A stretch of DNA of 64,000 nucleotides from Methylotenera sp. (GCA_020622105.1 JAHRYP010000002.1:14176-78175); one strand, 5' to 3'; positions 4,665 to 32,254 are shown, numbered from the stretch's first letter. The notes: a model not told the origin generated them from the letters alone. Numbers and translations are program-made.

Positions 4665-5568
4665 ATGAGAACTATTCGAAAACCTCTTATCGGGCTTGCA
4701 TTAGGCGGTGGAGCTGCACGCGGCTGGTCGCATATAGGTGTAATTAGAGCTTTAGATCAGGCAGGAATTAAGCCTGACATTATTTGCGGCACCTCAATTG
4801 GTGCTTTAGTTGGCGCGGTGTATGCAGCCGGGGAGTTGGATCGCTTTGAACAGTGGGTACTTGAACTGAAAATCAGTGATGTCGTCTCCTATATAGACGT
4901 GAGTCTCAGCGGTGGTTTACTCAAAGGCGAGCGTCTCATGGAGTTCTTTCGTAGAGACTTTGTTGATCGTGCAATAGAAGACCTAGCTATTCCTTTTGCA
5001 GCGGTAGCGACATCACTGAAAACCGGTGCAGAAATCTGGCTGCGTGATGGTTCCACACTTGAAGCTGTACGCGCTTCCATTGCTCTGCCTGGGCTTTTTG
5101 AACCATCCCTGAAAGATGGCGAGAGAGTGGAGGGAGGATTGGATCAACCCGGTACCAGTATCACTCGCACGTGCAATGGGCGCAGATTTTGTGATCGCAG
5201 TTGATCTAACCGCTGGCGTATTGAGTCAAAAACTTGATTTTGATCAACAGAAAGATAAATCAGACGACCAAACTGTTAGCTGGATGACAAAACTTCAAGA
5301 GGGACTAGACTCCCTGGTTCCTGCATTTGTACAAAAAGAGACCGACTTACCTTCTATGCTAGATGTTATTACTTCCAGCATTAATATTATGCAGATCCGT
5401 ATTACGCGAAGCCGAATGGCTGGAGACCCGCCGGAAATTATCATAGCGCCACACCTCGCACACATCGATCTCCTTGATTTCCATCGAGCGAAAGAAGCGA
5501 TTCAAGAGGGAGAACAGGCTATGAATGCCATGCTACCCTTATTAATAGAGCGTTACGATTCCATTTAA
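4665..5568 (+). pseudogene. rssA: Patatin-like phospholipase (RssA-type), frameshifted near 5141-5144
   Basis: GGGAARG and GTSIG motifs lie in ORF 4665-5204; NPVPVSLARAMGA and MSRMAGDPP-like segments lie in ORF 5116-5568. Removing one base at ttg-g(a)tc-aac restores GGLVNPVPVS and gives a 300-aa protein. Confidence 0.85.
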
Positions 5569-8213
5569 ATGACTGAATATTCTAGAATTGAAGCAGTCTG
5601 GTGGCGTAATACTAGAACTAGAGGCGTAATTTTTATAATCTCAAACCAGAGTACGCTGATCCAAACCCCGGCTACACAATATAAAAACTGTAATGGTGAA
5701 ATCGGCGCGAAATGAAATATTTCGCGAAGTATCGGAAAACTTAGTATTAGCAAAAGAAACACAAATGCACCCAAGATCACCCACCATAAAGCAGGATTAT
5801 ATTGACTGGCGGTTTTAAGTACGCTGTGACGCCATGAACGATTAACCAGAATCAAGCCTAGATTACCAATGACCAAAGTTGAGAAGGTCAATGTCCGAGC
5901 CACTTCATCACTTGCGTCATGCAGCAGCGCATAACTTAATACCGATAATGAAGACAACAGCACAAATACGCCCTGCCATAGACTGATTAAGAAAATACGG
6001 CGACCAAACAAAGCTTCACTGGAGGGTCGCGGTGGACGCTGCATGATATTTGCTTCTGCTGGCTCAGCTTCAAAGGCAATTGAACACGCGGGATTAATGA
6101 TCATTTCCAGAAATACGATATGCACAGGCGCGAACACTGGCGACCAGCCGAACAATAAAGGTATCAGTGCCAAGCCAATAATAGGAAAATGCACCGCAAA
6201 AATGTAAGCCATGCCTTTGCGCAAATTGTCGAAAATAGAACGGCCCAAACGCACCGCATGCACAATCGATGCAAAATCGTCATCAAGCAGAACCAGACCA
6301 GCAGCCTCACGCGCCACGTCAGTACCGCGCCCGCCCATCGCAATTCCAATGTGTGCAGCTTTTAATGCAGGCGCATCATTCACACCATCGCCAGTCATTG
6401 CCACAATCTCGCCATTCGCTTTCAGTGCATTGACTAGACGCAGCTTTTGCTCAGGAACCATGCGCGCAAATATATTGCTGTGATGAATACGCTCGCGTAA
6501 GGTTACCTCATCCATCTGGGTTAACTCTGCACCGGTAATTATTCCGCCATCACCGGCAGGAAGCCCGATTTGAGATGCGATAGCGATAGCAGTTGTCGGA
6601 TAATCACCGGTAATCATCACCACGCGAATCCCGGCAGCATGACATTGTTTGATTGCCGGCAATACCGTTGGCCGTACCGGATCAGCCAAACCGATGAGCC
6701 CAAGAAACTCAAATTCAAAATCATGCTGAATGTCAGGCCAAGTGTTGCTGCTATGATTAGCTTTAGCCACCCCTAGTACGCGCATACCCTGTGCAGCTAT
6801 CTGATCTACCTGCTGAGCCAGTTGCGCCAGCTGTGTTGCATTGAAATGGCACAGATCAGCAATAGCCTCTGGCGCACCCTTTGCAGCGACCACATAGTCG
6901 TTACTATCCACCGCTTTCCACACCCGAGATAGTGCCAGCAACTCAGGTGATAACGCATACTCGTGAGCCATTTGCCAACTCCCATGCAAGTGCTCAGTAT
7001 CGGCTAAATAACGCTTACCTAAAGTATGAATGGCTTTTTCCATTGGGTCAGACGGTGCAATGTCACTGGCTAAAATAGAAAACTCTGCTAATTCATGAAA
7101 CATCTCCGGCATCAGCAGTTCTGATTGAGTGCAGTCAAAGACAGCATTATTGACTACTAGCTGTCGTACCTCCATACGATTAAAGGTCAGCGTGCCAGTT
7201 TTATCTACACACATGACAGTGGCCGAACCCAGCATCTCGACCATATTAACGCGCCTTGTCAGCACGCGGTGCTTGGAAATACGCCAGGCCCCCATCGCCA
7301 TAAAAACAGTCATCACAACCGGGTACTCTTCAGGTAATATCGACATCGCCAAAGTGATGCCAGATAACAATCCATGCAACCAATCGCCGCGTGTCAAACC
7401 ATATACAAGCAGTAGTAACAGGCTTAGAAAAGCTCCAAGAATAGCGAGATTGCGGACCAAGTGTTTAATTTCATTCTGCAAAGGGGTTGTTACACTGTCT
7501 AATTCCTGCAGGGATTTACCTATTTTGCCTATTTCACTGTTGAGGCCAGTTGCCAACACCAATGCTTGTCCTCGTCCCTGTACAACTAAAGTGCCGGCAT
7601 AGATAAACGGCAAACCATCACCGCCCGGTGGCGAAACTTCAGAAATGGGCTGCTCAATCCGGTTGGTCTGCGCAATTTTGGTAACAGACACCGACTCTCC
7701 GGTTAGTAATGATTCATCTACAGCAAGATTATGACTGGAAGTTAATACGGCATCCGCCGGCACGCGATCGCCTTCGGATAATATGAGCATGTCACCGCGT
7801 ACTACTTCACGTCCAGCAATACGTTGCTCAACGCCATCACGCACTACTAAAGCGCGCGGACTGGTTAAGTCGCGCAGAGCATCCAATACACGCTCGGTTT
7901 TGTTTTCCTGGTAAATAGTGATTGTCATCACCACACACACAAAACCTAGCAACATCAGCGCATCAGTGACATCTCCTAGCAGTAAATAAATACCCCCGGC
8001 TGCCACCAATAACAGAAACATAGGCTCTTGTACGACCTCCCATGAGATGTCCCGCAAATTTCTCTTGCCAGACACAGGTAGCTCGTTCGCACCATCTTGC
8101 TTCAACCTGACTTTTGCTACTGCACTTGATAAGCCAACATGCTGAAAAATACCAAGCCCTTGCTGCGGCTTACGCAAGTTTTTAACAAAACGCTGTGTGT
8201 TTTTAATCTGCAT
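5565..8213 (-). CDS. Cation-translocating P-type ATPase (type II-like)
   Basis: TGES, PEEYP, DKTGT, KGAPE, MITGD and TGDGVNDAPAL motifs; multiple TM segments. Overlaps the patatin 3' end by 4 bp (convergent). Confidence 0.95.
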   Translation of the reverse strand: MQIKNTQRFVKNLRKPQQGLGIFQHVGLSSAVAKVRLKQDGANELPVSGKRNLRDISWEVVQEPMFLLLVAAGGIYLLLGDVTDALMLLGFVCVVMTITIYQENKTERVLDALRDLTSPRALVVRDGVEQRIAGREVVRGDMLILSEGDRVPADAVLTSSHNLAVDESLLTGESVSVTKIAQTNRIEQPISEVSPPGGDGLPFIYAGTLVVQGRGQALVLATGLNSEIGKIGKSLQELDSVTTPLQNEIKHLVRNLAILGAFLSLLLLLVYGLTRGDWLHGLLSGITLAMSILPEEYPVVMTVFMAMGAWRISKHRVLTRRVNMVEMLGSATVMCVDKTGTLTFNRMEVRQLVVNNAVFDCTQSELLMPEMFHELAEFSILASDIAPSDPMEKAIHTLGKRYLADTEHLHGSWQMAHEYALSPELLALSRVWKAVDSNDYVVAAKGAPEAIADLCHFNATQLAQLAQQVDQIAAQGMRVLGVAKANHSSNTWPDIQHDFEFEFLGLIGLADPVRPTVLPAIKQCHAAGIRVVMITGDYPTTAIAIASQIGLPAGDGGIITGAELTQMDEVTLRERIHHSNIFARMVPEQKLRLVNALKANGEIVAMTGDGVNDAPALKAAHIGIAMGGRGTDVAREAAGLVLLDDDFASIVHAVRLGRSIFDNLRKGMAYIFAVHFPIIGLALIPLLFGWSPVFAPVHIVFLEMIINPACSIAFEAEPAEANIMQRPPRPSSEALFGRRIFLISLWQGVFVLLSSLSVLSYALLHDASDEVARTLTFSTLVIGNLGLILVNRSWRHSVLKTASQYNPALWWVILGAFVFLLLILSFPILREIFHFAPISPLQFLYCVAGVWISVLWFEIIKITPLVLVLRHQTASILEYSVI

Positions 8214-8573: not shown

Positions 8574-11144
8574 TCACCCCTCTTTTACACGCTGTGCAAT
8601 ATGCGCCAAGGCTTCATCTACCTGATCAATCAAAATCAGACATAAATCACCTTCACCTAAACGTGACAGCCCAGTATCAATAGCCAAAAACTCGCCTCGA
8701 ATTTCATCAATTTTCTTGGATCGTTTAGCATTTAGCAGGCCCTGTTGCAAAAGCTGCAACACTTCACCATCTGCACGACCACGCTGACATTTATCCTGAT
8801 ACAGGATTACTTCATCAAACGCGTCACCAACAATCTCTGACTGGCGCATGATATCAACATCACGGCGATCTCCTGCGCCGCTGATCACGACTAAACGTCT
8901 TTTTGCAGGAATATTTTCGACCGCTGCTACAAGGGCAAGTATGGCATCCGGATTATGCCCATAATCCGCAATTACATTTGCACCGCGATATTCGAAAAAG
9001 TTAAATCTACCGGGTGCAGTCGCAGCATCATTTACAAAAGTGCTGACGCCTGCTTGTATCGTTTTCCAATCCACATTTAAAGCCCAGGCAGCGGCAATTG
9101 CCGCCATGGCATTCTCAACCTGAAAACCGATGATACCGTTTCTGGTAATTGGAATTGACGCCAGGTCAAAACGCTGTTCTTCCTGATTTTGTGCGGCCAC
9201 GATCTGGTTGTTTTCTACATAAACAATACGATGCCCCTGTGCGCGATGCGTTGCCATGACAGGATTTTCGCGATCATAAGCAAAGAATGTAACGCCTCCA
9301 GGACACGAAGCAGCCATCGCCACAGTCATAGGATCCGCCGCATTAAGAACAGCCATACCGTCCGGTGCAACATTCTGCACTACTACGCGTTTAACAACAG
9401 CCAGATCTTCAACCGTCGTAATAAAGCTCAAACCAAGGTGATCGCCAACGCCAATATTGGTAACGACTGCGACATTGCAGCGATCAAATGCCAAGCCCTC
9501 TCGCAGCACACCGCCGCGCGCGGTTTCAAAGACTGCTGCATCAACATCAGGGTGCATCAATACATTACGTGCACTTTTCGGCCCACTACAATCACCGGTA
9601 TCAATGCGTTTACCTTGAATATAAACACCGTCAGAATTGGTCATACCGACCCTTAAACCCTGACAACCAAGAATATGTGCAGTCAAACGCACAGTAGTCG
9701 TTTTACCATTGGTACCGGCAACAGTGACTAAAGGTATACGCCCGTTATCTCCTGGTGAAAATATGGAGGAAACAATCGCCTCTCCTACAGGCCGACCTTT
9801 ACCGAAAGAGGGCTGCAGATGCATGCGTAACCCTGGCGCTGCATTCGCTTCAACAATACCGCCACCTTGCACTTCGAGCGGCTGCAACACACTGTCGCAC
9901 ACCACATCAATACCGCAGATATCCAATCCTACCATCTGTGCCGCGGTGACTGCACTTGCTGCCAGATCTGGATGAACATCATCGGTTACATCCGTTGCCG
10001 TACCTCCGGTACTTAAATTGGCGTTATTGCGTAATATGACACGCGCACCTTTACCGGGAACAGAGTCCAATGCCAAATGCTGTTCAGCCAAACACGAAAC
10101 AGCAATATCATCGATACGAATTTTGGTCAGCGACGTTGCATGCCCCGAACCGCGACGTGGATCACTGTTAACCTGATTAACTAAAGTCTGAACTGTGCTG
10201 ATGCCATCACCGATCACCAGTGGTGGCTCACGTCTGGCTGCTGCAACCAGCTGATTACCGACTACCAGTAAGCGAAAATCACTGCCGGGAATGTATTTCT
10301 CAACCAGTACCTCTTCACTGATAGCGCTAGCAGCGGCGTAGGCAGCATTGAGTTGTTCGCGGGTGCTGATATTTACGGTAACGCCCTTACCCTGATTACC
10401 GTCTTTAGGTTTAACCACGACGGGTGAGGCTATTTCAGCCATGGCACGCCATGCGTCTTCAATGTCTGAGACTTCACGCCCGACAGGTACTGGCACACCG
10501 GCTGCATCCAGCAGTTTTTTGGTCAGCTCTTTATCCTGCGCAATTGCTTCTGCAATCGCACTGCTGCGATCCGTTTCTGCAGCCTGAATTCGACGCTGAC
10601 GACTACCCCAGCCAAACTGAACCAGGCTACCCTGTGTCAAGCGGCGGTATGGGATGCCTCTTGCCACAGCTGCATCTACAATTGCACCGGTACTCGGGCC
10701 AAGCCGCACGTCCTCATCTAAATCCTTAAGCTCCGTTATTGCTCCAGCAAGGTCAAAAGGCTTACTCTCCACAGCTGCCTGACATAGCTGCTCTGCCAGC
10801 TCAAGCGCACGGCGGCCTACAGCCTCTTCGCTATATTCAATCACTACCTGGAATACATTGGATTGTTGTGTAGTAGCGGTACGGCTGAATGTCACTGGGC
10901 AGCCAGACTTTGCCTGAAGAGCAAGCGAGGCAACTTCGAGTACATGTGCCATAGACACTGGCCCGCTATGACCCATCAGCTGCAGGCAACCTATTTCAGG
11001 AAAATGCTCTCGCAATCTCGCTTCAAAACCATCAATGCTGTCAATTTTGCACTCTTCATCGCTACAGGACACCACAGCTTCAATAGCAGTGTGACGACTC
11101 CATAAATTAGGACCACGTAGCGCACGTATGCGTGATACTTCCAT
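8574..11144 (-). CDS. cphA: Cyanophycin synthetase (full-length, ATP-grasp + Mur-ligase domains)
   Basis: RALRGPN N-terminus; ATP-grasp motifs KPKDGNQGKG, NANLSTGG, EANAAPGLRMH; Mur P-loop GTNGKTT; C-terminal DYGHNP. Confidence 0.95.
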   Translation of the reverse strand: MEVSRIRALRGPNLWSRHTAIEAVVSCSDEECKIDSIDGFEARLREHFPEIGCLQLMGHSGPVSMAHVLEVASLALQAKSGCPVTFSRTATTQQSNVFQVVIEYSEEAVGRRALELAEQLCQAAVESKPFDLAGAITELKDLDEDVRLGPSTGAIVDAAVARGIPYRRLTQGSLVQFGWGSRQRRIQAAETDRSSAIAEAIAQDKELTKKLLDAAGVPVPVGREVSDIEDAWRAMAEIASPVVVKPKDGNQGKGVTVNISTREQLNAAYAAASAISEEVLVEKYIPGSDFRLLVVGNQLVAAARREPPLVIGDGISTVQTLVNQVNSDPRRGSGHATSLTKIRIDDIAVSCLAEQHLALDSVPGKGARVILRNNANLSTGGTATDVTDDVHPDLAASAVTAAQMVGLDICGIDVVCDSVLQPLEVQGGGIVEANAAPGLRMHLQPSFGKGRPVGEAIVSSIFSPGDNGRIPLVTVAGTNGKTTTVRLTAHILGCQGLRVGMTNSDGVYIQGKRIDTGDCSGPKSARNVLMHPDVDAAVFETARGGVLREGLAFDRCNVAVVTNIGVGDHLGLSFITTVEDLAVVKRVVVQNVAPDGMAVLNAADPMTVAMAASCPGGVTFFAYDRENPVMATHRAQGHRIVYVENNQIVAAQNQEEQRFDLASIPITRNGIIGFQVENAMAAIAAAWALNVDWKTIQAGVSTFVNDAATAPGRFNFFEYRGANVIADYGHNPDAILALVAAVENIPAKRRLVVISGAGDRRDVDIMRQSEIVGDAFDEVILYQDKCQRGRADGEVLQLLQQGLLNAKRSKKIDEIRGEFLAIDTGLSRLGEGDLCLILIDQVDEALAHIAQRVKEG

Positions 11145-11215
11145 TAAACAGTTTTCCTTGTATTAATTTTTATCGAATATTTAAAATCGCTCACAATGCT
11201 TCCGACATCGGCATT

Positions 11216-13363
11216 TCAAACATCCGGCTGTTCCAAACTATAGGTTTTAACTCCGGCGCTTATTAAATCCGGAGAAATTCCAAGTGCCCATGCTGCAGCC
11301 ACTGCTGGCAGCAATGGCTGCATACTCTGTGCTGAAATGGGTTTTGCCGCTGGATTCGTTAACAGAATCTTGCACAGCGATGATGCCAGAATCAGACCGC
11401 CGCCTTTTTGCAGCACGGCCCGCCCACCTTGCTTCAGATGCTTGCGAATCACAGGTGATTCAGAATTTGTAGCGAAAAATATTACTTCTCCATCACATAG
11501 CTCCGCCATCTGTGCGACTAACGGATCTTCTGCATTCAGCACGGCAACGCCATCGCCAAGCACTACATCGACCTGAGTGCGCAGCACGTTATAAACCTGT
11601 TCTGGCGTTTCAGTATAAAAGGCACCAAAATGCTTTTCAGATTGAATATTAGTCACTACTCCCACCTGACAACGATCGTAACCGAGACCTTCTGCCAGTA
11701 TCGTAGAAACACTGTTCTCAATCACAGCAGCTTCTACTTTACGGTTCATTAATAGCTTCTGCGCAGCTGTCCAGGTAGCGCAATTACCCTTCTCAATCTG
11801 TCGCTCCCCAGAAAACAAGCCATCACTGCAAGCCAATCCAACGTGACTGCCACTTAAATGAATAAATCTGGCCAGAATCTTTGCAACTCTTGTTTTACCG
11901 CTACTGCCAGTAATGCCAACAACAGGAATACGGCCAGTCTCATCATCTGTAAACAGATGATCAACAATCGCTTTACCTACCGGACGCGGCTGGCCTTCTG
12001 CCGGTTTTAAGTGCATAAGAAGACCAGGTCCGGCATTTACTTCTACAATGGCACCACCTTGTTCACCCAGTGGCTTAGAAATATCCTCAGCCACCAGATC
12101 GATGCCCGCGATATCCAGACCAACAACACGTGCAGCCAGTGAAACGGCTGCAGCGACTTCAGGGTGAACAATATCGGTGACATCAAACGCTACGTTACCG
12201 TTACGCTGAACAATAATTGAAACATCTTTTGGCAAAACTGAATCGGCGGTATAACCCTGCCGTTCAATTTCAAATTTTACTGCCGGGTTTTTATCTACTA
12301 GCAGCACGTCCAGCGGGAACTCTTCCTCCTCACCGCGCCTTGGGTCTGAATTGACCTGCTGATCAATCAACTCACGCACAGTAGCAACGCCGTCACCAAG
12401 CACAGAAACCGTTTCTCCACGCGCAGCAGCTGCAAGCTTACCGCCAACCACCAGTAAACGATGTTCGTTACCACGCACAAAACGCTCAACCAGCACCTCG
12501 CTGCCTTCAGCATCTGCCAGATGATAAGCGGCTTCTACTTCTGCGCGCGTCATGAGTTCAGTAGAAACACCGCGTGCATGGTTAGCGTCCGTGGGCTTCA
12601 CAACAACAGGAACACCAATATCTTCAGCCGCATCCCAGGCATCCTCCGGGCTTTCTACAATACGGCCTTCTGGCACTGGAACACCGCAGCTGGTTAACAA
12701 TTGCTTGGTTAAGTCTTTATTGCGCGAGATACCTTCAGCAATCGCGCTGGTACGGTCAGTTTCCGCTGTCCATACCCGATGCTGGCGGGCGCCATAGCCA
12801 AGCTGTACCAGATTGCCATCAGTCAGGCGAATTGAGGGAATGTTTCGTGCAGTAGCGGCATCAACAATGCAAGCCGTGCTTGGCCCCAGACAATGTGAAT
12901 CTATCAATTCGCGCAAATGATGAATAGCGGCTTTCACATCAAAGGGTTTATCTTCAATTGCTGCCATTACCAGATCGCGGCCTGCGTGTAGCGCTGCAAT
13001 ACTTACTTTCTCATTTCTGGAACGCACTACAACCTTGTAAACACCGCGTACAGAGGTGCTGCGCGCCTTACCGAAACCGCCCTGCATACCTGCTAGCGTT
13101 TGCAACTCAAGGGTAACGTGCTCAAGAATGTGGCCCGGCCAAGTACCTTCACGCAGGCGCAGCAGAAATCCGCCAGGCTCACCGATGCCGCAGCGATGCT
13201 CTGCCAGTGAAGGCAGCCATGCTGTCAGTCGTTCATAGAATCCGGGAATAAGGTTTGAAGGTGAATCCTCCAAAGGGCCAATGTCGAGCCATACCTCTAG
13301 CACAGGGCGATATGTCCAGATATTCGGCCCGCGTAGCGCTAAAATCTTTAAGAACTTCATCAA
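11216..13363 (-). CDS. cphA': Cyanophycin synthetase-like paralogue (CphA'), C-terminally shortened
   Basis: LRGPNIW and GGF..RL.EGTW.GHILEH N-domain, ATP-grasp-like core, altered Mur P-loop GSSGKT, no DYGHN domain. The start may be the ATG at 13360. Confidence 0.9.
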   Translation of the reverse strand: MMKFLKILALRGPNIWTYRPVLEVWLDIGPLEDSPSNLIPGFYERLTAWLPSLAEHRCGIGEPGGFLLRLREGTWPGHILEHVTLELQTLAGMQGGFGKARSTSVRGVYKVVVRSRNEKVSIAALHAGRDLVMAAIEDKPFDVKAAIHHLRELIDSHCLGPSTACIVDAATARNIPSIRLTDGNLVQLGYGARQHRVWTAETDRTSAIAEGISRNKDLTKQLLTSCGVPVPEGRIVESPEDAWDAAEDIGVPVVVKPTDANHARGVSTELMTRAEVEAAYHLADAEGSEVLVERFVRGNEHRLLVVGGKLAAAARGETVSVLGDGVATVRELIDQQVNSDPRRGEEEEFPLDVLLVDKNPAVKFEIERQGYTADSVLPKDVSIIVQRNGNVAFDVTDIVHPEVAAAVSLAARVVGLDIAGIDLVAEDISKPLGEQGGAIVEVNAGPGLLMHLKPAEGQPRPVGKAIVDHLFTDDETGRIPVVGITGSSGKTRVAKILARFIHLSGSHVGLACSDGLFSGERQIEKGNCATWTAAQKLLMNRKVEAAVIENSVSTILAEGLGYDRCQVGVVTNIQSEKHFGAFYTETPEQVYNVLRTQVDVVLGDGVAVLNAEDPLVAQMAELCDGEVIFFATNSESPVIRKHLKQGGRAVLQKGGGLILASSLCKILLTNPAAKPISAQSMQPLLPAVAAAWALGISPDLISAGVKTYSLEQPDV

Positions 13364-13486
13364 TCTTTCCAGATGAAAAAAATCACAATAAAGTGTGCCG
13401 CCTTACTACAAGAAACTTGCATCTAACTTACAACTAGCTTTTTAACTATTTTGTAAGGCAATCTGAATGTAGTAAACTCGGTACCT

Positions 13487-15808
13487 GTGAACAGCAAAAT
13501 ATTACACCTAACTCCATCCAGTAGACTGCTACCGAACTTCTGGCAATCAATAGTTCAATCACATCTTGAAAATGCAGAAGAACTAAAGGCCTGGCTAGAG
13601 ATCAACCTTGATGAACAGCTACATTTTACAGAACATTTATTGCTTATTACCAACCGGCGATTAGTATATTTTTGTCCAGATAAAACGCATGCAGATATAC
13701 CGAATGTTTCGGTGTATGAATACGCTTATCAGCCAGATTTAAAGTTACTTCAGCATGATCATGCCGGGGTCTACAGGCTGGAGTTGTTTGAACATAATTT
13801 GCGCATAGCCAGCTGGTGCTACACGCTGACCAGCGACACTTCATCCGCAAGATTTATCAAGCAGTTCGAGCAACAGTGCACCAGTTTTATTACTGGCAAA
13901 CCTGTACCTGCCGAAGCAACCGAGCCTTGCCCAAAATGCAGATACCCGCTCACAGCAGAGCAGGATGAATGCCCGCAATGCAGTAGCGAAATTGATACGC
14001 CACCCTCTACATGGACACTGTTCAGACTGTGGCGATTTGCCAAACCCTATCAATGGCAACTGCTGGCGGGCTTTTTATTAATGCTGGCATCCACCGCCGC
14101 CACGCTGGTACCGCCCTATTTAACCATTCCGCTAATGGATAAAGTGCTAATCCCTTATCAAAATGGCGTACCTATAGATACCGACCTGGTTGCGCTTCTG
14201 CTAGGTGGGCTATTAGGTTCAGCACTTTTGGCATGGAGCCTTGGCTGGTCAAAAACCTACATACTGGCACTGGTCAGTGAGCGCATAGGGGCTGATTTGC
14301 GCACCATCACTTACGACCATTTGCTCAAACTTTCGCTTGAATATTTTGGCGGCAAACGTACCGGCGACCTCATGGCACGCATCGGTTCTGAATCCGACCG
14401 GATTTGTGTATTCCTGTCATTGCACCTTCTGGACTTTGCAACCGATGTACTGATGATCATTATGACGGCTGCAATCCTGGTCTCTATCAACCCGGAACTT
14501 GCCTTGGTCACTTTACTGCCGCTACCTTTTATTGCGTGGATGATCCATATCGTGCGCGACAAGCTGCGCACCGGCTTTGAAAAGATAGACCGCGTATGGT
14601 CAGAAGTCAGCAACGTATTGGCCGATACCATTCCGGGGATACGCGTAGTGAAGGCTTTTGCACAGGAAGCCCGAGAATCATCACGTTTTCGCGAGGCTAA
14701 CCAGCACAATCTGGCAGTGAATGACCGTATCAATAAAATATGGTCATTATTCTCTCCCAGCGTGACTTTACTCACAGAGATTGGCCTGCTGCTAGTGTGG
14801 GCGTTCGGTATCTGGCAGATATCTAAAGATGAAATCAGCGTCGGTATACTGACAGCGTTTCTGGCTTATATCAGCCGCTTCTACACACGGCTGGACTCCA
14901 TGAGTCGCATCGTTTCAGTCACGCAAAAAGCTGCATCCGGTGCAAAACGTATTTTTGATATTCTTGACCATGTATCCAGCGTGCCGGAACCAAGCAATCC
15001 GGTTCATCTGGATAAAGTTTCGGGAAAAATTGAAATTCGCTCGGCTGGTTTCCGTTACGGCAATCGTACCGTGATCAAGGATTTAAACCTGACTATTGAG
15101 CCGGGTGAAATGATTGGCCTGGTTGGTCACAGTGGTTCAGGCAAGAGTACTCTGGTTAACCTGATGTGTCGCTTTTATGATGTCAGTACAGGCTCTATCA
15201 GCCTCGATGGCGTCAATATCCGCTCTTTACCGATTTCCGAATATAGACGCAACATTGGTCTGGTATTACAGGAGCCGTTCCTGTTTTTTGGCAGTATTGC
15301 GGAAAACATCGCTTATGGCAAACCGGATGCCACTCGCGCTGAAATCATTGCCGCAGCGCGTGCTGCACATGCGCATGAGTTTATTCTGCGCCTGCCGCAC
15401 GGTTATGACTCGCTGGTAGGTGAACGCGGTCACGGCCTTTCCGGCGGTGAACGCCAGCGCATCTCAATTGCGCGCGCCTTGCTCATAGACCCACGCATTT
15501 TGATTTTAGATGAAGCGACAGCTTCAGTTGACACAGAAACTGAAAAGGAAATCCAGAAAGCCTTGGATAATCTGGTGCATGGGCGTACCACCATCGCTAT
15601 CGCGCACCGATTGTCTACACTGCACAAAGCCAACCGATTAGTCGTGATGGATCAAGGCCAGATTGTTGAAATTGGCAACCATGACGAACTGATGGCGAGC
15701 GAAGGCGCTTACTACCGACTGTATCAGGCACAGGCACGCAATGTAGATACTGATCTGGATGACGTGATCAGCAATGAAACAATCGCCAATAAAGAAGCGA
15801 GCGCATAA
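13487..15808 (+). CDS. ABC exporter (fused permease/ATPase) with about 175-aa N-terminal extension; cyanophycin-locus-associated type
   Basis: Six-TM exporter domain, Walker A GHSGSGKST, signature LSGGERQR, Walker B ILILDEAT, IAHRLST. The N-extension ends in CPKC-x10-CPQC. Confidence 0.92.
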   Translation: MNSKILHLTPSSRLLPNFWQSIVQSHLENAEELKAWLEINLDEQLHFTEHLLLITNRRLVYFCPDKTHADIPNVSVYEYAYQPDLKLLQHDHAGVYRLELFEHNLRIASWCYTLTSDTSSARFIKQFEQQCTSFITGKPVPAEATEPCPKCRYPLTAEQDECPQCSSEIDTPPSTWTLFRLWRFAKPYQWQLLAGFLLMLASTAATLVPPYLTIPLMDKVLIPYQNGVPIDTDLVALLLGGLLGSALLAWSLGWSKTYILALVSERIGADLRTITYDHLLKLSLEYFGGKRTGDLMARIGSESDRICVFLSLHLLDFATDVLMIIMTAAILVSINPELALVTLLPLPFIAWMIHIVRDKLRTGFEKIDRVWSEVSNVLADTIPGIRVVKAFAQEARESSRFREANQHNLAVNDRINKIWSLFSPSVTLLTEIGLLLVWAFGIWQISKDEISVGILTAFLAYISRFYTRLDSMSRIVSVTQKAASGAKRIFDILDHVSSVPEPSNPVHLDKVSGKIEIRSAGFRYGNRTVIKDLNLTIEPGEMIGLVGHSGSGKSTLVNLMCRFYDVSTGSISLDGVNIRSLPISEYRRNIGLVLQEPFLFFGSIAENIAYGKPDATRAEIIAAARAAHAHEFILRLPHGYDSLVGERGHGLSGGERQRISIARALLIDPRILILDEATASVDTETEKEIQKALDNLVHGRTTIAIAHRLSTLHKANRLVVMDQGQIVEIGNHDELMASEGAYYRLYQAQARNVDTDLDDVISNETIANKEASA

Positions 15809-15810
15809 CG

Positions 15811-16293
15811 ATGGCAACGATCAACCCCAATAAAGATTTCACGCTGGCACGTAACCCAACAGGCCAACTGCAATTTACTGATAGCGATGGCATTGTGTTT
15901 GATAATGTTTATCTCGTGCGCGCTTTTCCTATCTCAGCACCTGACGAAGGGCTTTCAATTATCAGCAAAGAAGGTCACGAGCTTGCATGGATTTCCAACT
16001 TAGTAGATATGCCGATTCAATTGAAAGAACTTATCGAAGCCGAACTTGCGCAGCGTGAGTTCATGCCGGAAATTCTGCGTATTAATCAGGTATCAAGCTT
16101 TGCTACACCTAGCATGTGGGATGTATGGACAAATAAAGGTAGCACACAACTGATCCTCAAAGCAGAAGACCAGATATGGCGGCTTAAAAACAACAGGATT
16201 CTCATCACAGACAAAAACGGCGTTAATTTCATGATCAATAACATAGAGCAGCTGGATAAGCACTCCAGAAAACTGCTGGATAGATTTTTATAA
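15811..16293 (+). CDS. DUF1854-type protein
   Basis: Starts 2 nt after the ABC gene. VRAFPISAP..GLS, E.ELA.REFMPEI, S.ATPS.W.V.T.KG and LD..SRKLLDRFL match my recollection of DUF1854 proteins found next to this ABC type. Confidence 0.8.
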   Translation: MATINPNKDFTLARNPTGQLQFTDSDGIVFDNVYLVRAFPISAPDEGLSIISKEGHELAWISNLVDMPIQLKELIEAELAQREFMPEILRINQVSSFATPSMWDVWTNKGSTQLILKAEDQIWRLKNNRILITDKNGVNFMINNIEQLDKHSRKLLDRFL

Positions 16294-16482: not shown

Positions 16483-18534
16483 ATGGCCTCAAATTCTTTC
16501 AAGATCAGTTCGATTAAAAGCAGGGTAACAGCCCTGACGCTTGCCATTTTCATTATTGGCGTGTGGTTACTTTCGTATGATATCAGCCAAAAACTGCAAA
16601 AGGATATCGCTAAACAAATCAGTGAGCAGCAACTTTCCACTACCGCTTTATTAGCAAACCAGATCAACAACGACCTTGTGGACAGACAAACCACACTTGA
16701 AGATCTTGCTAAAAGAATAGGTCAGATTGGGCTAGACGATCAGGCACAATTACAATCATTTCTGGATGACCGCTTTGTTATTAAACGGGATTTCAATGTA
16801 GGTGCTTCTATTATCAACTTTGATGGCAACGTCATTGCCTCTGTTCCTAGTAAGTTTCAACGCATTGGCATTAATTATAGAGATAGAGCCTTTATCGCTA
16901 CTGCACTCGATAAAGGCAAACCGACCATCAGCGAAATTTTTATTGGAAAGGTACTGCAAAATTTTGTTTTCGGCCTAGCGGTGCCAATCCGTAACTCACA
17001 GGGTAAAGTCATTGGCGCTCTTGCTGGCGGAATCGACCTGACAAAGCCAAATTTTCTGGATAAAATTGCCGACAACCGTTTCGGAAAAACCGGTTATTTT
17101 CTGTTAGAAGATCAAAAAACCAGAATCATCATTACCAGTACTGACAAACGCCGTGTTTTGCAGCAACAGTTGCCACCTGGCACCAATCGGCTAGTTGACC
17201 GCCATTTGCAGGGTTATGAGGAAAGCGGAATCACAACCAATACTTTCGGGGTTGAAGTATTAGCTTCTGCCAAGCGTATTCCTATTGCAAACTGGGTAAT
17301 GGTCGTAGCTATCCCAACGGCAGAAGCTTTTGCACCTATCAAGGAAATGCAATCACGCATCATAGCAATTGCAAGTCTGTTGACATTAATATTAGGCGCT
17401 ATCATTTGGTGGCTGTTATGGCGTGAACTATCACCAATATTTTCCACCATCAAAAAACTGGGGATTCTAGCGAGGCTGGAAACCCATAATGTGCTATTAC
17501 CAGAAACCAAACATGGTGAAATAGGCGACCTTATCAAAGCTTTTAACCTTTTGCTGACAGCCTTGCAGCAACGTGAACAGGCTTTGGAGGAAAGCGAATT
17601 TCGCTGGAAATTTGCAATTGAAGGTACCGGAGATGGGCTCTGGGATTGGGATATTCCTAACAATACCGTCTATTTCTCAAAAACCTGGAAAACAATGCTG
17701 GGCTATTCTGAGGGAGACATCAGCAACAACCTGAGTGAGTGGGAAAGACTTGTGCATCCTGATGACCTGCATGACACCATGATTGCTGTACAAGAACATC
17801 TGGATGGAAAAACGCCAGCCTACATCAATGAGCACCGCTTACTCTGTAAAAATGGTAGCTACAAATGGATACTTGACCGAGGTCTGGTTGTAAGCCGAGA
17901 CGAACAAGGCAAACCACTACGTGCCATCGGCACACACACTGATATCACCGAACGCAAACAAATGGAAGAATTTATACGTCAGCAGGCACTGTATGACCCT
18001 CTGACCAAACTACCTAACCGGCGTCTGTTAGTTGATCGCCTCGGGCTGGCAATGTCGACAAGCAAACGTACCGGTAGTCACGGCGCACTGCTATTTCTCG
18101 ATCTGGACAACTTTAAACCGCTTAATGACACCCATGGCCATGAAGCTGGTGATTTGCTGCTGATCGAGGTTGCCAACCGAATAAGGCGTTGCTTGCGAGA
18201 AACAGACACCGTTGCCCGCTTGGGTGGTGATGAATTTGTGATTGTGCTTGCACAGCTAGATATAGATAAGAACATATCAAAACAACAGGCTGAAATGTTA
18301 GCCGAGAAAATTCGTACCGAATTGGCTAAAACCTATGCTCTTGAACTGAAAGGCGAAAATGGTAAAGTTTTTATAATTGAACATCACTGTACCGCAAGCA
18401 TAGGCGTCACACTGTTTATTGATGAAAGATCTTTTATTAACGATATTCTAAAAAACGCCGATGATGCCATGTACCAAGCTAAAAACGCTGGCCGAAATCG
18501 TGTCTGCTTTTATGACTCAAACAAGAAAACTTAA
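16483..18534 (+). CDS. Diguanylate cyclase (Cache-HAMP-PAS-GGDEF)
   Basis: Two TM helices flank a periplasmic Cache-like region; PAS (DGLWDW...HPDD); RETD I-site and LGGDEF. Confidence 0.92.
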   Translation: MASNSFKISSIKSRVTALTLAIFIIGVWLLSYDISQKLQKDIAKQISEQQLSTTALLANQINNDLVDRQTTLEDLAKRIGQIGLDDQAQLQSFLDDRFVIKRDFNVGASIINFDGNVIASVPSKFQRIGINYRDRAFIATALDKGKPTISEIFIGKVLQNFVFGLAVPIRNSQGKVIGALAGGIDLTKPNFLDKIADNRFGKTGYFLLEDQKTRIIITSTDKRRVLQQQLPPGTNRLVDRHLQGYEESGITTNTFGVEVLASAKRIPIANWVMVVAIPTAEAFAPIKEMQSRIIAIASLLTLILGAIIWWLLWRELSPIFSTIKKLGILARLETHNVLLPETKHGEIGDLIKAFNLLLTALQQREQALEESEFRWKFAIEGTGDGLWDWDIPNNTVYFSKTWKTMLGYSEGDISNNLSEWERLVHPDDLHDTMIAVQEHLDGKTPAYINEHRLLCKNGSYKWILDRGLVVSRDEQGKPLRAIGTHTDITERKQMEEFIRQQALYDPLTKLPNRRLLVDRLGLAMSTSKRTGSHGALLFLDLDNFKPLNDTHGHEAGDLLLIEVANRIRRCLRETDTVARLGGDEFVIVLAQLDIDKNISKQQAEMLAEKIRTELAKTYALELKGENGKVFIIEHHCTASIGVTLFIDERSFINDILKNADDAMYQAKNAGRNRVCFYDSNKKT

Positions 18535-24644: not shown

Positions 24645-27600
24645 TTAAGACGACACAGCAAGCTGCTCCGCCTCATAACCCCGCATTTTCAGTAATTCTT
24701 CGAACTGCACAATTGGTAGAGGTCTGCTGAACAAATAGCCTTGGTAGGATGTGCACCCTTTATTGAGCAGGAATTGCAGCTGTTCCTCGGTTTCTACGCC
24801 TTCAGCAATAATATCCAGGCTTAAGCTTTTCGCCATTGCAATGATGGTATGCACAATCGCCTGATCACTGACATCCGTGATCAAGTCACGCACAAAAGAT
24901 TGATCGATTTTCAGTTGATTTAATGGCAGGCGTTTAAGATACATCAATGATGAATAGCCGGTACCAAAATCATCGAGGGAGAACTGAACGCCAATTTCTC
25001 TCAACGTAGTCATGGTCACAATAATTTCCTCTACATCATCCAGCAACAGGCTTTCGGTAAGTTCCAGCTTAAGTAATGATGGATTAATGCCATGACGATT
25101 CACAGCATCCTGCACTTGCTCAACAAAGTCAGCCTGACGGAACTGTTTTGCGCTGACATTAATTGATAATACGATATCTTTGGTGAACGCACTTTGCTGC
25201 CAGACTTTCAACTGAGCGCATGCAGTTTCGATCACCCATTTGCCGATTGGCAAAATCAAGCCGATTTCTTCAGCGAGCGAGATAAAATGGAAAGGCAACA
25301 CCATGCCGCGTTCGGGGTGCATCCAGCGGATCAAGGCTTCTGCACCTAATGCCTGACCTAAATTATTAACCTGAAGCTGGTAGTGCAACTGGAACTGGTC
25401 GTTATCGAAAGCCTTATGCAATTCTCTTTCAAGCACAGCTCGGTTATTGATAACCTCCTGCATGACAGGGTCGAAGAAACGTATTGCATTACGCCCGGCA
25501 GTTTTGGACTGATACATGGCAATATCAGCCTGTTTGAGAAGCTCATCCGAGCCTACTTCGTGGCCGCTGAATAATGTAGCGCCAATGCTGGTGGTACTAT
25601 GATACTCGTATGTATTCAGGTGATAGGCCTGGTTGAGAACGTTTAGAATCTTTTCACAAATAATTTCCGCTTGTCTGGCAGCCTCAAATATAGAGTCACT
25701 GAGACCTTCCAGCATGATGACAAATTCATCACCGCCAATACGGGCAACGGTATCACCTTCACGCACGCACGAAGTGAGTCTTTCCGAAACTTGCTTCAAT
25801 AACAAATCACCCACGTCATGACCGAGCGTATCATTCAGCGTCTTAAAATGGTCAAGATCAAGAAACAGAATAGCACCACCACCTTTACCTCTGGCGCTGG
25901 TGACAAGTGCCTGGCTTAAACGATCCATCAGCAGTCGACGGTTTGGTAAACCAGTCAATGAGTCATAATAGGCTAAATGCTGAATCTCTTCTTCAGCTGA
26001 CTTACGTGAAGTAATATCAACTAGTGTTGCAACGTAGTTTACTGTCGCGCCATCGCGTCCTTTTACTGCGGTAAAGGTGAGGTGTGCTGGGTATACCTCA
26101 CCATTTTTACGCCGGTTCCAAACTTCACCTTCCCATGAGCCGGTATTGACAATGCTTTCCCACATGCTAGCGTAAAAATCCATATCATGACGACCGGAAC
26201 TGAGCATACCTGGATGTTTTCCTATGATTTCATCTTCGGAGTACCCGGTGATTTGGGTACAGGCACTATTTACCCTGAGTATTACCCTGTTGGCATCGGT
26301 TACCAACATACCTTCTTGAGATTCAAAAGCGATGGCAGCAATCTGCAGATTCTGTTCAATCATCTTACGCTCGATCGCAATTCCAGCCAGCCTGGCAGAT
26401 TGCTCAAGAATGGAAAGGTCGAACTTGGAGTGCTCATGCGGCTCGTTGTGATATATGGCAAACGTACCCAGCAACTCTCCGGATGATGAACGGACTGGCT
26501 GTGAGCAGCAAGCGCCAAATCGAGCCTGCATCGCTAAATCTTTCAGCGAAATCCAATATGGATGCGTAGCAATATTTTCAACAACAACGCGCTCACCGGT
26601 AAATACAGCTGCAGAACATGAGCCGAACCCTACGCCGATTTCAACTCGGCTAATGGCTGTTCTAAAGAAAATTGGCAGGTTATTTGCAACGCATTTACTG
26701 AAAAATTTACTCTCAGGATCTAACAGCATGACGGTGCAGGTCATTTCTGGATTAAGTTTTTCGACCCCGCGTACGATCACTTTAAGGATATTAGGCAGTG
26801 GTTCATCGCTTGCAAGTTGTTCAAAAATAACATTGCGCAGATGTTCGTATTTTTCAGATCTTTTCTGTTCACGATTTTTCTCGATCAAGCTGGCCTGCAT
26901 TCTTGCTAAACATGCCAATGCACTATTGTCCATTTCATCTGTAACAGTATCTGCATGCAATAAATTTCCATTACTTATTCTAGTAACGTGCTTATGTACA
27001 TCATCTACAGAGCCGCCCAATTGCGCCCTCAAAGCCAAATAAGCCTTTCTACCCGTAAATACAAAGGCGAAAGTAAATAATATGGCCAAAATTTTCAGAA
27101 TTTCAGAAAACGTTTCCGCAGATTTTGCCGCATTCAAGCTACGCTCGGTGACCGTTGCACTGACATCGTTAATCGACTTCATAATGCTGGCAATTGCCTG
27201 CTGATAGCTTTCATCCTGTAGCATCTGAGTTGCTCTGGCGCGCCTGACATCAACATCTGCGCCTGTTGCTTCAATCAATCGCATCGCGTTAAGTTCGGTA
27301 GTGTTGATATCGGCAAATCTGGAGTCAGCAAGTTTAAGCTTTTGATACTCCTGCTTTGAAAAGCCTTCATAGCTAATTAAATCAAGTAATGCTATCGGCT
27401 GCTCAGCAGACATTCTATTTTTGATAACAAAACCCAAATAAGGTAGATTGTATTTTTCAGGCCTAACCTGATGACCTTCGCGTATATCCAGAATATTCTG
27501 ATATTGCTTTTTATAAACCGGATTAGCTGTTGCAACATAGGTTAACGCCATTCTTCTCTGATCATCCAAAGACTGACGATACTCACTCAACAACAACACG

Positions 27601-27746
27601 GATTGATATCGGATCCCTTTGGCATCATCGATCTTTTTTTCCAATATTACATGCGATACAAAATAAATTGCGATAGCTATGAGTAGCCAGATGGAAGTCC
27701 ATATATATCTGGCAAACGGACTCATTGACATGTATTTTATTGCCAT
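24645..27746 (-). CDS. Membrane-anchored GAF-PAS-GGDEF-EAL hybrid (c-di-GMP cyclase/phosphodiesterase)
   Basis: Two TMs, GAF (SCSAAVFTGERVVVENI), PAS, IGGDEF with REGD I-site, AEALIRW, LELTES, LDDFGTGYSSL, AEGVET. Confidence 0.93.
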   Translation of the reverse strand: MAIKYMSMSPFARYIWTSIWLLIAIAIYFVSHVILEKKIDDAKGIRYQSVLLLSEYRQSLDDQRRMALTYVATANPVYKKQYQNILDIREGHQVRPEKYNLPYLGFVIKNRMSAEQPIALLDLISYEGFSKQEYQKLKLADSRFADINTTELNAMRLIEATGADVDVRRARATQMLQDESYQQAIASIMKSINDVSATVTERSLNAAKSAETFSEILKILAILFTFAFVFTGRKAYLALRAQLGGSVDDVHKHVTRISNGNLLHADTVTDEMDNSALACLARMQASLIEKNREQKRSEKYEHLRNVIFEQLASDEPLPNILKVIVRGVEKLNPEMTCTVMLLDPESKFFSKCVANNLPIFFRTAISRVEIGVGFGSCSAAVFTGERVVVENIATHPYWISLKDLAMQARFGACCSQPVRSSSGELLGTFAIYHNEPHEHSKFDLSILEQSARLAGIAIERKMIEQNLQIAAIAFESQEGMLVTDANRVILRVNSACTQITGYSEDEIIGKHPGMLSSGRHDMDFYASMWESIVNTGSWEGEVWNRRKNGEVYPAHLTFTAVKGRDGATVNYVATLVDITSRKSAEEEIQHLAYYDSLTGLPNRRLLMDRLSQALVTSARGKGGGAILFLDLDHFKTLNDTLGHDVGDLLLKQVSERLTSCVREGDTVARIGGDEFVIMLEGLSDSIFEAARQAEIICEKILNVLNQAYHLNTYEYHSTTSIGATLFSGHEVGSDELLKQADIAMYQSKTAGRNAIRFFDPVMQEVINNRAVLERELHKAFDNDQFQLHYQLQVNNLGQALGAEALIRWMHPERGMVLPFHFISLAEEIGLILPIGKWVIETACAQLKVWQQSAFTKDIVLSINVSAKQFRQADFVEQVQDAVNRHGINPSLLKLELTESLLLDDVEEIIVTMTTLREIGVQFSLDDFGTGYSSLMYLKRLPLNQLKIDQSFVRDLITDVSDQAIVHTIIAMAKSLSLDIIAEGVETEEQLQFLLNKGCTSYQGYLFSRPLPIVQFEELLKMRGYEAEQLAVSS

Positions 27747-29784: not shown

Positions 29785-29803
29785 CTTGATTCCTTTGCGT
29801 GTT

Positions 29804-30511
29804 TCACTCGAACTCCTTACCCATACGCGACGTCATTTGACGCCACAATGCGATATTACTTGCGCTGCTTGACCCACTTTTACCTGCAGCACGTTCTTTC
29901 GCCAGCCACAACCCCTGCCCGTTAAACGTATACACAGGAGCAAGGTCTTTTCTTTCTGTCGCCAATTTAATCTCAGGGTTAAGGTTATCTAAAACTAATG
30001 GTACTGCTGCGGGCTTCTCATAATAGGTCAGCACCATGTGCGAACGGTTTATGGGGTTAGGGGTGTCAGCCTTAACATAGGTAATTGTCAGCTTTTCCAT
30101 CGGCACATTTAACGCGATTAATGTGAAATATTTGGCAATTGAAAAATCCTCACAATCCCCGCCACCTGATGCAATCGTTTCCAGCGGGGTAGACCAGTAA
30201 TCCGCAACACCATAATGATCGTAGTCTGATACCCAAAGTACATTCTGGTTAAAAAAATCATTTACTAGCACTAGTTTATCTCTTGTAGATTTACCCTGGC
30301 TGGCATTCACCAATTGCACCCAATCAGCAACACGTTTACGCCCTAACTCCTTATACTTTGCTTCAATCGCTACAAACTGCTTATCCGAAATAGATATATT
30401 GAAACTATCGCCAACCACCGCTGGCAGCAATAGTGATACACCCAATAGACAAACTACGGCAGTTAGACGTAGATACGGTGCAATAAGTCTTAATGTGATG
30501 CGATGAGGCAT
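29804..30511 (-). CDS. lapG: LapG-like periplasmic transglutaminase-like cysteine protease
   Basis: DYWSTPLE, GGDCEDFSIAKYF, HMVLTYY and LVLDN triad motifs; N-terminal signal/TM segment. Confidence 0.94.
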   Translation of the reverse strand: MPHRITLRLIAPYLRLTAVVCLLGVSLLLPAVVGDSFNISISDKQFVAIEAKYKELGRKRVADWVQLVNASQGKSTRDKLVLVNDFFNQNVLWVSDYDHYGVADYWSTPLETIASGGGDCEDFSIAKYFTLIALNVPMEKLTITYVKADTPNPINRSHMVLTYYEKPAAVPLVLDNLNPEIKLATERKDLAPVYTFNGQGLWLAKERAAGKSGSSSASNIALWRQMTSRMGKEFE

Positions 30512-30558
30512 TATCTATTTGAGCATATTTTCAAAACTTAAGCGAATAACACACATAA

Positions 30559-30586
30559 AAAAACCGGACCATTAAATCCGGTTTTT
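30559..30586 (-). terminator. Terminator after the TolC gene
   Basis: aaaaaccgga/tccggttttt inverted repeat with a minus-strand U-tract. Confidence 0.7.
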
Positions 30587-30664
30587 AAAGAAATTACTCT
30601 CGCTGTACTATCGTCTCACTTACTAAAGTATTAGGCGTCATGCTTTACCATTACCTTATATAAA

Positions 30665-32229: not shown

Positions 32230-32254
32230 ATCAAATCAAACCAATCAAACTAAA

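Follow-up and report, generated by a model that had tools for sequence, protein, structure and literature searches.

The window analysed here is a 64,000-nucleotide (nt) stretch of Methylotenera sp. DNA (GCA_020622105.1 JAHRYP010000002.1:14176-78175), in which coordinates are counted from the first letter. It carries a module of four genes in the order DUF1854 gene, ATP-binding cassette (ABC) exporter gene, cphA' and cphA, with the exporter half divergent from the cph half. Both cph products share the N-G-M domain architecture of the cyanophycin synthetases SuCphA1 and TeCphA1 (7LG5, 7TXU, 7WAC) and align with them end to end (E 1e-154 to 1e-190). However, the three active sites that cyanobacterial CphA1 carries on one polypeptide are together on no single polypeptide in the window. 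The cph half contains the following features.

11216-13363, minus strand: cphA' open reading frame (ORF), 715 amino acids (aa) from a TTG codon, with an N domain, a modified G domain and a truncated M core
13106-13198, minus strand: predicted N-domain Zn-endopeptidase site of CphA' (H56, C58, F66, R69, H78, E81, H82, E86)
11930-12895, minus strand: G (ATP-grasp) domain of CphA', with K216, K256, H262, R302, D422, E441 and N443 kept
11219-11929, minus strand: truncated M core of CphA', with K490/T491 (Walker) and E549 kept and no M lid
11145-11215, minus strand: cphA'-cphA spacer, 71 nt, with a ribosome-binding site (AAGGAAA) at 11153-11159
8574-11144, minus strand: cphA ORF, encoding a CphA1-type synthetase of full length (856 aa) with a predicted dead N site
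10920-11006, minus strand: degenerate N-site region of CphA, with an 11-residue deletion between I51 and G52 and the H57-C59 loop gone
9738-10709, minus strand: G domain of CphA (K205, K245, R291, R305, N376, S378, D413, E432, N434, R440; Q251 at position 267)
8577-9737, minus strand: M domain of CphA, core and lid (K481, T482, E540, and matches to Su D585/H586 and Te F692/R731/H748)

The likelier start of cphA' is an ATG at 13360, one codon downstream of the TTG and preceded by GGAAAG, and the CphA' residue numbers used here may therefore shift by one. The resulting 714 aa is also the length of the cphA' homologues in databases, among which the nearest named relative is CphA' of Methylotenera sp. 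G11 (90% identity). No terminator-like hairpin was predicted in the 71-nt spacer.

Residues with roles set by mutagenesis and cryo-electron microscopy were mapped onto both proteins by way of the SuCphA1 (7LG5) and TeCphA1 (7WAC) sequences, rebuilt from HMMER alignments. The N site of SuCphA1 comprises H57, C59, F67, R70, H79, E82, H83 and E87, with E82 as general base, R70 binding substrate and H57 and E87 tuning H83, and its cleft is lined by S603 and E607 of the M core (PMC9262961). In the G domain, K220 and K261 serve ATP, D431 and E450 Mg, and H267 and R309 the acyl-phosphate, and the incoming Asp is met by R323, N394, S396 and R458 (PMC9427784). The TeCphA1 mutations R323A, N394A and R458A each impair the enzyme (PMC9427784), and deletion of the M lid strongly lowers its activity. 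The M-domain residues are K499, T500, T522, E558, F692 and the lid residues R731 and H748, together with D585 and H586 (PMC9262961).

CphA' aligns with 7LG5 over residues 2-710 (E=1.8e-154) and scores 1043 bits against NF010623 (cut-off 877), but its 738.7 bits against the TIGR02068 equivalog model fall under the cut-off of 850. Pfam assigns Cyanophycin_syn, ATP-grasp and Mur_ligase_M to it, without Mur_ligase_C. The initial annotation, made from the window alone, had pointed to an exact Cx19HxxEH motif in this protein. The motif lies at 13118-13192 and falls column for column on C59/H79/E82/H83 of SuCphA1 (C58, 13190-13192; H78, 13130-13132; E81, 13121-13123; H82, 13118-13120). The second shell agrees likewise, with H56, C58, F66, R69, H78, E81, H82 and E86 corresponding to Su H57, C59, F67, R70, H79, E82, H83 and E87, and all eight residues are invariant in 81 of 81 CphA' orthologues.

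The counterparts of K220, K261, H267, R309, D431, E450 and N452 in the CphA' G domain are invariant in all 81 orthologues, and so are four changes around the aspartate site: R323G (G316, 12416-12418), H353E (E347, 12323-12325), R458L (L449, 12017-12019) and a five-residue deletion in the large loop (Su 396-400, at the 12190/12191 junction), with which ANLSTGG is absent. CphA' thus lacks the aspartate pocket that is formed in CphA1 by R323, the 389-399 loop with N394 and S396, and R458. In the M core of the window protein, Su D585 is replaced by K and F692 by Q, and the C-terminus lies at about Su residue 728, leaving the set of residues expected of a competent M domain incomplete. Truncation of this kind is seen in 89 of 133 CphA', and the M domain is intact in 44 (KTEDH and lid present, about 855-890 aa), from Cupriavidus, Ralstonia, Achromobacter, Planctomycete and deltaproteobacterial lineages. 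While the M catalytic residues drift, the positions of Su S603 and E607 in the N-site cleft are R and D in 81 of 81 CphA', which would be a reason to keep a catalytically dead M core.

The KPTDANHARG and GSSGKT strings and the absence of the LSTGG loop and of the C-terminal domain were all quoted correctly in the initial annotation, which took them as erosion of the synthetic motifs. That interpretation stands for the aspartate pocket and for the M domain truncated in this window, but not for the ATP, Mg and acyl-phosphate residues of the G domain, which are kept and strongly selected. K261 and H267 survive in DANHARG, and the canonical DGNHGRG is what most CphA' carry; GSSGKT, with both the K and the T of the Walker motif, is a valid Walker A; and loss of the M domain is lineage-specific rather than a general trait of CphA'. 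Judged by these residues, CphA' almost certainly cannot polymerise; its descent places it in the CphA1 superfamily, but functionally the name cyanophycin synthetase does not suit it.

CphA shows the converse pattern. It aligns with 7WAC over residues 1-850 (E=7.9e-190), scores 982.3 against TIGR02068 (cut-off 850) and 1245.8 against NF010623, as expected of the CphA1 family, and contains Cyanophycin_syn, ATP-grasp, Mur_ligase_M and Mur_ligase_C. The intact ATP-grasp and Mur motifs (KPKDGNQGKG, ANLSTGG, GTNGKTT, DYGHNP) and the broken N motif C-x13-H-V-L-E-V are present as first described. The G-domain residues (K220, K261, H/Q267, R309, R323, N394, S396, D431, E450, R458) are invariant in 73 of 73 orthologues, and the M-domain residues (K499, T500, E558, D585, H586, F692, R731, H748) in 71-73 of 73. 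In place of HxxEH stands H67-V-L-E70-V71 (H83 to V), A75 replaces E87, and C53 of the C53-x13-H67 string is not the homologue of C59 in the alignment. The H83 position is never His, either in the 73 CphA orthologues or in the 80 proteins of the CphA-seeded set described below. CphA has every sequence hallmark of CphA1 except the N site, a motif found in 83% of CphA1 at 70% non-redundancy and lacking in about 17% (PMC9262961). The Q at position 267 of CphA was considered as a defect complementing H267 of CphA' and rejected, since Q occurs in 21 of 46 canonical three-site CphA1 representatives. The trans-protomer Arg contact E215 was considered as a sign of a composite active site and set aside: the Glu is shifted by one position in both paralogues and is in register in AbCphA1 and TmCphA1. 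Su W672 of the tetramer interface was rejected as a proxy for oligomerisation, as it is not conserved even among canonical CphA1.

To cover other genomes, contigs were scanned three times, with one genome per species, by a CphA' query, a profile query and a CphA query. The CphA' query returned 80 loci, all with cphA' followed by cphA and with the ABC and DUF1854 genes wherever the contig allows, from Methylophilaceae, Gallionellaceae, Sulfuricellaceae, Cupriavidus, Ralstonia, Achromobacter, Herbaspirillum, Thiobacillus, Accumulibacter and others. The profile query added 79 loci, including Comamonadaceae, Oxalobacteraceae, a Lysobacteraceae metagenome-assembled genome (MAG), Planctomycetes, a deltaproteobacterium and a Myxococcota MAG. 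The CphA seed gave 80 more, with a CphA' gene in front in each that has enough upstream sequence.

The reciprocal split is the same across the 133 loci with two long genes. In paired loci, the pattern C.{19}H..EH matches the first gene and never the second, and all 73 CphA of the CphA'-query loci lack H57 and C59, keep all G and M residues and have Q at 267. A column scan for fixed differences returned R323G, H353E, loss of S396/G398/G399 and R458L in CphA' only, and loss of H57/C59/G65 in CphA only. The lesions in the pair are two clean, reciprocal, site-specific losses. Some apparent exceptions were rejected: gaps ('--') at H57/C59 in Planctomycete proteins were an artefact of the --keeplength alignment, the motif being present in the raw sequences; five CphA-seeded loci seemingly without an upstream CphA' were an artefact of stop-to-stop ORF bounds; and 'HDQEH' in one CphA (locus L197) is a chance match outside the active-site helix. 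Conservation of the reciprocal pattern in other tandem pairs, which the initial annotation had named as a test that could refute it, is thus borne out: about 210 loci, in Betaproteobacteria, Planctomycetes and a deltaproteobacterium, show it, and the only CphA' without the complete N site are the three described below. At the sequence level, the split is real, general and apparently undescribed. No publication on it and no newer work on the pair was found in a search with few subscription-journal papers within its reach; among the literature searched, the N-site motif is named in no paper other than Sharon et al. 2022, which does not mention paralogue pairs (PMC9262961).

The ratio of nonsynonymous to synonymous substitutions (dN/dS) ranges overall from 0.02 to 0.14 in every domain of both genes. 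In 25 close pairs, the N, G and M-core values are 0.05, 0.07 and 0.08 in CphA', against 0.08, 0.04 and 0.05 in CphA, and between the window CphA' and its nearest relative (L001) it is 0.020 (N), 0.036 (G) and 0.045 (M core). Among 32 non-redundant pairs, the N domain, G domain and M core have mean pairwise identities of 0.74, 0.73 and 0.55 in CphA' and of 0.67, 0.755 and 0.755 in CphA. By both measures the N domain is under tighter constraint in CphA' than in CphA, and the G domain is about equally constrained in the two. These values argue against neutral decay, only the CphA' M domain being relaxed, and that in a lineage-specific way.

Comparison with characterised enzymes indicates what such a division could do. 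SuCphA1 has the Cx19HxxEH motif and second shell of CphA' together with the G and M catalytic residues of CphA. Its N site, discovered to be an endo-cyanophycinase, cleaves slowly, with (beta-Asp-Arg)4 as the main product; an isolated N domain supplied in trans makes the primer-dependent TmCphA1 primer-independent; and an engineered SuCphA1 heterodimer of N-G+M+ and N+G-M- subunits synthesises without primer, somewhat below the cis arrangement (Sharon et al. 2022, PMC9262961). In that heterodimer, live and dead sites are divided between the chains just as they are between CphA and CphA'. However, the heterodimer was made by point mutation, whereas the G site of natural CphA' has not simply been killed, its ATP and acyl-phosphate residues being kept. 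TmCphA1 and AbCphA1 (7LGN, 7LGM) resemble CphA as full G and M synthetases without Cx19HxxEH, and the CphA G domain is closest to 7LGM. Unlike CphA, they have H rather than Q at 267 and stand alone, with no CphA' partner mentioned in the publications consulted. CphA2 (7TA5, 8FXH), a cyanobacterial beta-Asp-Arg polymerase, is like CphA' an N-G-M protein with a truncated, inactive M domain, but its large loop is present, with N393 and S395 essential, and the N-site motif is missing, the reverse of CphA'. The possibility that CphA' is a CphA2-like dipeptide polymerase was rejected, given the deleted loop, the peptidase motif and E values of 1e-154 to CphA1 against 1e-56 to CphA2.

The exporter half and the region between the two halves contain the following features.

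13364-13486, no strand assigned: divergent intergenic region between cphA' and the ABC gene, 123 nt
13487-15808, plus strand: ABC exporter, a 773-aa half-transporter with transmembrane and nucleotide-binding domains, 1406.8 bits against NF052233 (cut-off 880)
15811-16293, plus strand: DUF1854 protein, 160 aa, 208.5 bits against NF052234 (cut-off 150), PF08909, starting 2 nt after the ABC stop codon

NF052233 is named 'cyanophycin metabolism-associated ABC transporter', and NF052234 is likewise named 'cyanophycin metabolism-associated'. Both genes of this module adjoin the cph genes in the window and score above the cut-offs, and in nearly all loci with enough flank they adjoin cphA'. The exporter has a cytoplasmic N-terminal extension of about 170 aa with a CxxC...CxxC ribbon (13487-14000); sequence searches of the PDB gave no useful relatives of this domain or of the DUF1854 protein. 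In Acidovorax 3H11 and C. basilensis 4G11, cphA, cphA', the ABC gene and the DUF1854 gene are cofit, with motility and stress phenotypes, and export of an amino-acid polymer was proposed (Price et al.).

The gap between cphA' and cphA has a median of 53 nt over 73 loci, always with both genes on the same strand. Four metatranscriptome runs contain near-identical sequence, and the contigs assembled from them extend over all four genes and across the cphA'-cphA junction. Apparently, cphA' and cphA form one operon, for which the RNA evidence is only suggestive. The 123-nt divergent region presumably holds the promoters of both gene pairs; it contains no match to a consensus sigma-70 promoter, and promoter and terminator scans gave no more sites than shuffled sequence.

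Some loci outside the Betaproteobacteria look like earlier stages of the same split. In Pirellula genomes (L082, L157, Pirellulales), a single three-site CphA1 adjoins the ABC and DUF1854 genes. Pairs from Planctomycetes (L088, L089, L095) and a deltaproteobacterium (L102) show the same split, the first gene already having R323G and R458L but retaining the large loop and a whole M domain. In a crude neighbour-joining tree (BLOSUM distances, midpoint root, no support values), used as a hint only, the CphA'-like proteins form one old clade, while the betaproteobacterial and Planctomycete second genes fall in different parts of the canonical clade. If this placement is right, the N site of the partner was lost more than once.

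These observations lead us to regard it as somewhat probable that CphA' is a non-polymerising chain-cutter and primer-maker for CphA, either in trans or as part of a mixed oligomer. In this reading, CphA would be a self-contained G and M polymerase that, by analogy with the motif-less TmCphA1, depends on primer when alone. CphA' would be unable to add Asp and, in Methylotenera, unable to add Arg either, but its N site would be a working Zn endopeptidase that cuts the nascent (beta-Asp-Arg)n-type chains made by CphA. The short chains released could re-prime CphA, in trans or within a mixed oligomer, as a natural counterpart of the engineered heterodimer, and, being short and soluble, would be plausible cargo for the adjacent exporter. 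The pair may derive, by subfunctionalisation, from a three-site CphA1 with the ABC and DUF1854 genes already linked to it. The initial annotation had proposed that the three sites of CphA1 are divided between the two paralogues; the separation of the N site from the polymerising sites is upheld, but the CphA' G domain has been kept and M-domain loss is confined to some lineages. The conserved exporter and DUF1854 partners, the cofitness of the four genes and the C. necator result given below had no part in that annotation.

Several observations weigh against this reading. The ATP site of the CphA' G domain is strongly conserved, and the M domain is intact in 44 of 133 CphA'; neither is explained by a role in priming only. 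The peripheral polymer contacts of CphA' differ from those of SuCphA1 (E90N/T, R100K, T101A). In three Alcaligenaceae loci, the N site has been lost from CphA' too (Zwartia vadi L213, 3740-5953; L237, 66-2273, a MAG near-identical to Zwartia vadi; Sheuella L238, 3709-5904). Their CphA' are 0.41-0.42 identical to the window protein in the N domain and 0.64-0.65 in the G domain, with intact ORFs, the ATP residues and the G323/E353/loop-deletion/L458 signature kept, and their partner CphA also lack the N site. In a Planctomycetaceae MAG, a lone CphA'-like gene (L128, 6573-8693) adjoins DUF1854 and ABC genes, and its product lacks both the N site and the Asp pocket and has a degenerate M domain. 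No full CphA was found within 16.6 kb of it, and genes for a sigma-54 activator, a TPR protein and a sulfatase lie beside it. A search for further CphA'-like proteins without an N site (P0145 etc., alignment A1) returned mostly ordinary pairs and Planctomycete loci, with L128 as the only such case. The RNA evidence comes from assembled contigs, one of which crosses the divergent spacer, so that DNA carry-over is possible. In addition, the CphA/CphA' pair of C. necator H16, like the other betaproteobacterial tandem pairs, is orthologous to that of the window, in the same gene order and with the same exporter and DUF1854 neighbours (Cupriavidus loci L017-L025), and joint overexpression of the two C. 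necator genes, whether in the native host or in E. coli, is stated to have given no detectable cyanophycin (Adames 2013, as related in PMC8560796 and PMC11362209). On that account, the product is perhaps not classical insoluble cyanophycin. The C. necator work predates the discovery of the N site, and CphA' of Cupriavidus, as of Ralstonia and Achromobacter, has about 870-890 aa and an intact M domain (KTEDH and lid R/H), unlike the truncated protein of the window.

Priming explains neither the invariant ATP and acyl-phosphate machinery nor the survival of CphA' after N-site loss, and CphA' may thus have a second, ATP-linked role, such as nucleotide sensing, holding the chain C-terminus or non-Asp ligation, probably tied to export. 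The persistence of CphA' with a conserved G domain in three lineages without the N site likewise means that cleavage cannot be its entire job, and the original idea of a dedicated cleavage subunit was too narrow in this respect. From its conservation and gene context, CphA' is better described as a remodelled, strongly selected protein with an ATP-binding G domain and an exporter context than as a stripped-down peptidase. As natural N-site-null systems, the three Alcaligenaceae loci could separate the two roles of CphA'.

The alternative that fares best, possible though not likely, is that the module builds no storage granule and CphA' mainly trims the chains made by CphA to length for the ABC/DUF1854 system, with a product that acts outside the cytoplasm and priming as a by-product. 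Consistent with this, the two exporter genes accompany cphA'-cphA in essentially all loci and also the three-site CphA1 of Pirellula, and the four genes share fitness and the motility and stress phenotypes from which polymer export was proposed by Price et al. The reported failure to detect cyanophycin in the C. necator overexpression and the finding of cyanophycinase in only 2.8% of 903 cphA1-bearing betaproteobacterial genomes, called unanticipated by its authors (PMC10206079) and odd for a storage polymer, also fit it. However, no exported product has been detected, MsbA/HlyB-like ABC exporters are not known to carry branched polyamides, and the ATP site of the CphA' G domain is left unexplained by this alternative too. 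Cyanophycin-like material has been reported in activated-sludge taxa with this type of cluster, although it was not tied to these genes.

It is rather unlikely that CphA' is an ATP-dependent finishing enzyme, whose G domain would join the chain C-terminus to a non-Asp acceptor or to the exporter while the N site would set the length. If so, the betaproteobacterial operons would make a secreted or envelope-bound Asp/Arg oligomer and no nitrogen store, which would account for the lack of cyanophycinase as well as for the negative results in C. necator.

That CphA' is a pseudoenzyme, serving as a scaffold or ATP-sensing regulator in mixed oligomers with CphA and holding a merely structural metal in its N site, seems improbable. 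CphA' does lack the Asp pocket and, here, M catalysis as well; its nucleotide-binding residues are invariant, as in many pseudoenzymes, and it survives N-site loss in three lineages. On the other hand, E82, R70, H57 and E87 are invariant in 81 of 81 proteins, and a structural metal would not require E82 and R70, which makes a purely structural Zn site unlikely. H267 and R309, which stabilise the acyl-phosphate rather than the nucleotide, are invariant as well, and the partner has lost its N site only where CphA' supplies one, as functional complementation predicts.

Quite improbable, too, is a ligase of new specificity, in which the CphA' G domain would activate the C-terminal carboxylate of the chain and join it to a non-Asp nucleophile, so capping, terminating or anchoring the chain before export. 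The invariance of every ATP, Mg and acyl-phosphate residue would suit such an enzyme, as would the replacement of the Asp-carboxylate Args and loop by Gly, Leu and a deletion, which makes a larger uncharged pocket, and the retention of the G domain after N-site loss and in the lone L128 gene. Yet no nucleophile offers itself as a candidate, the family provides no precedent, and mutation of N393 or S395 abolishes CphA2 activity, so that the loop deletion in CphA' may simply kill catalysis.

It was also proposed at the outset that CphA' could start polymer turnover, and its accompanying statement that the window holds no cyanophycinase gene was confirmed: among all other sizeable ORFs, compared with Pfam or NCBIfam, no peptidase S51 cyanophycinase, IadA, IaaA or M14/AstE (M14/CphZ-type) ORF was found in the 64 kb. 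About 97% of such betaproteobacterial genomes have no cyanophycinase either, and the SuCphA1 N site is an endo-cyanophycinase. A role of CphA' as a cyanophycinase substitute that starts the mobilisation of stored polymer is nevertheless very improbable, as the SuCphA1 activity is slow and yields tetramers rather than dipeptides, no exopeptidase partner was identified, and the synthetase gene follows directly behind cphA' and shares cofitness with it. Such phenocopying of the synthase would be unexpected for a catabolic enzyme. Finally, a decaying duplicate without function, which the truncated M domain and drifting M catalytic residues of CphA' might suggest, is refuted by dN/dS values of 0.02-0.05 against the nearest relative and 0.05-0.14 over the 25 pairs in every domain, by intact ORFs in about 210 loci and by transposon mutants with fitness phenotypes.

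Tandem cphA/cphA' genes were noticed in Betaproteobacteria some 20 years ago, reportedly since Krehenbrink in 2002 and Fuser and Steinbuchel in 2007, and the split bears on the role of CphA'. That Betaproteobacteria have 'two cyanophycin synthetase' genes in tandem and lack cyanophycinase was already known. Two further puzzles are the lack of cyanophycinase in about 97% of cphA1-bearing betaproteobacterial genomes (PMC10206079) and the C. necator genes that reportedly give no cyanophycin. If the chain-cutting and priming role of CphA' is true, a three-site polymerase has been split in nature into a polymerase and a primer-making or chain-cutting subunit, a case of subfunctionalisation at the level of the active site. 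PGAP-style pipelines label both genes 'cyanophycin synthetase', and, CphA' being almost certainly non-polymerising, counts of cphA copies in wastewater microbiomes would overcount synthases. For nitrogen-recovery biotechnology, a heterologous betaproteobacterial CphA may need CphA' or added primer.

Other genes of the window lie on both sides of the module. A Ca2+-type P-type ATPase gene (5565-8213) follows cphA immediately downstream on the same strand, 360 nt off, and beyond it a patatin-like ORF (4665-5204) and an overlapping 150-aa ORF (5116-5568) may be a frameshifted or split gene. A Lap-type adhesin system (27841-42023) comprises a LapD-like GGDEF-EAL receptor, a LapG-like BTLCP protease, TolC, HlyD, an ABC exporter and a 1581-aa adhesin with cadherin, Calx-beta and RTX features, with further GGDEF/EAL proteins around it (16483-18534, 24645-27746, 50758-52497). 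An assimilatory nitrate/nitrite cluster (52581-63890), about 40 kb from the cph genes, encodes a molybdopterin nitrate reductase, a PP2C-kinase fusion, an MFS transporter, a NirB-type nitrite reductase, a tetrapyrrole methylase, an NMT1-type binding protein and an ANTAR response regulator.

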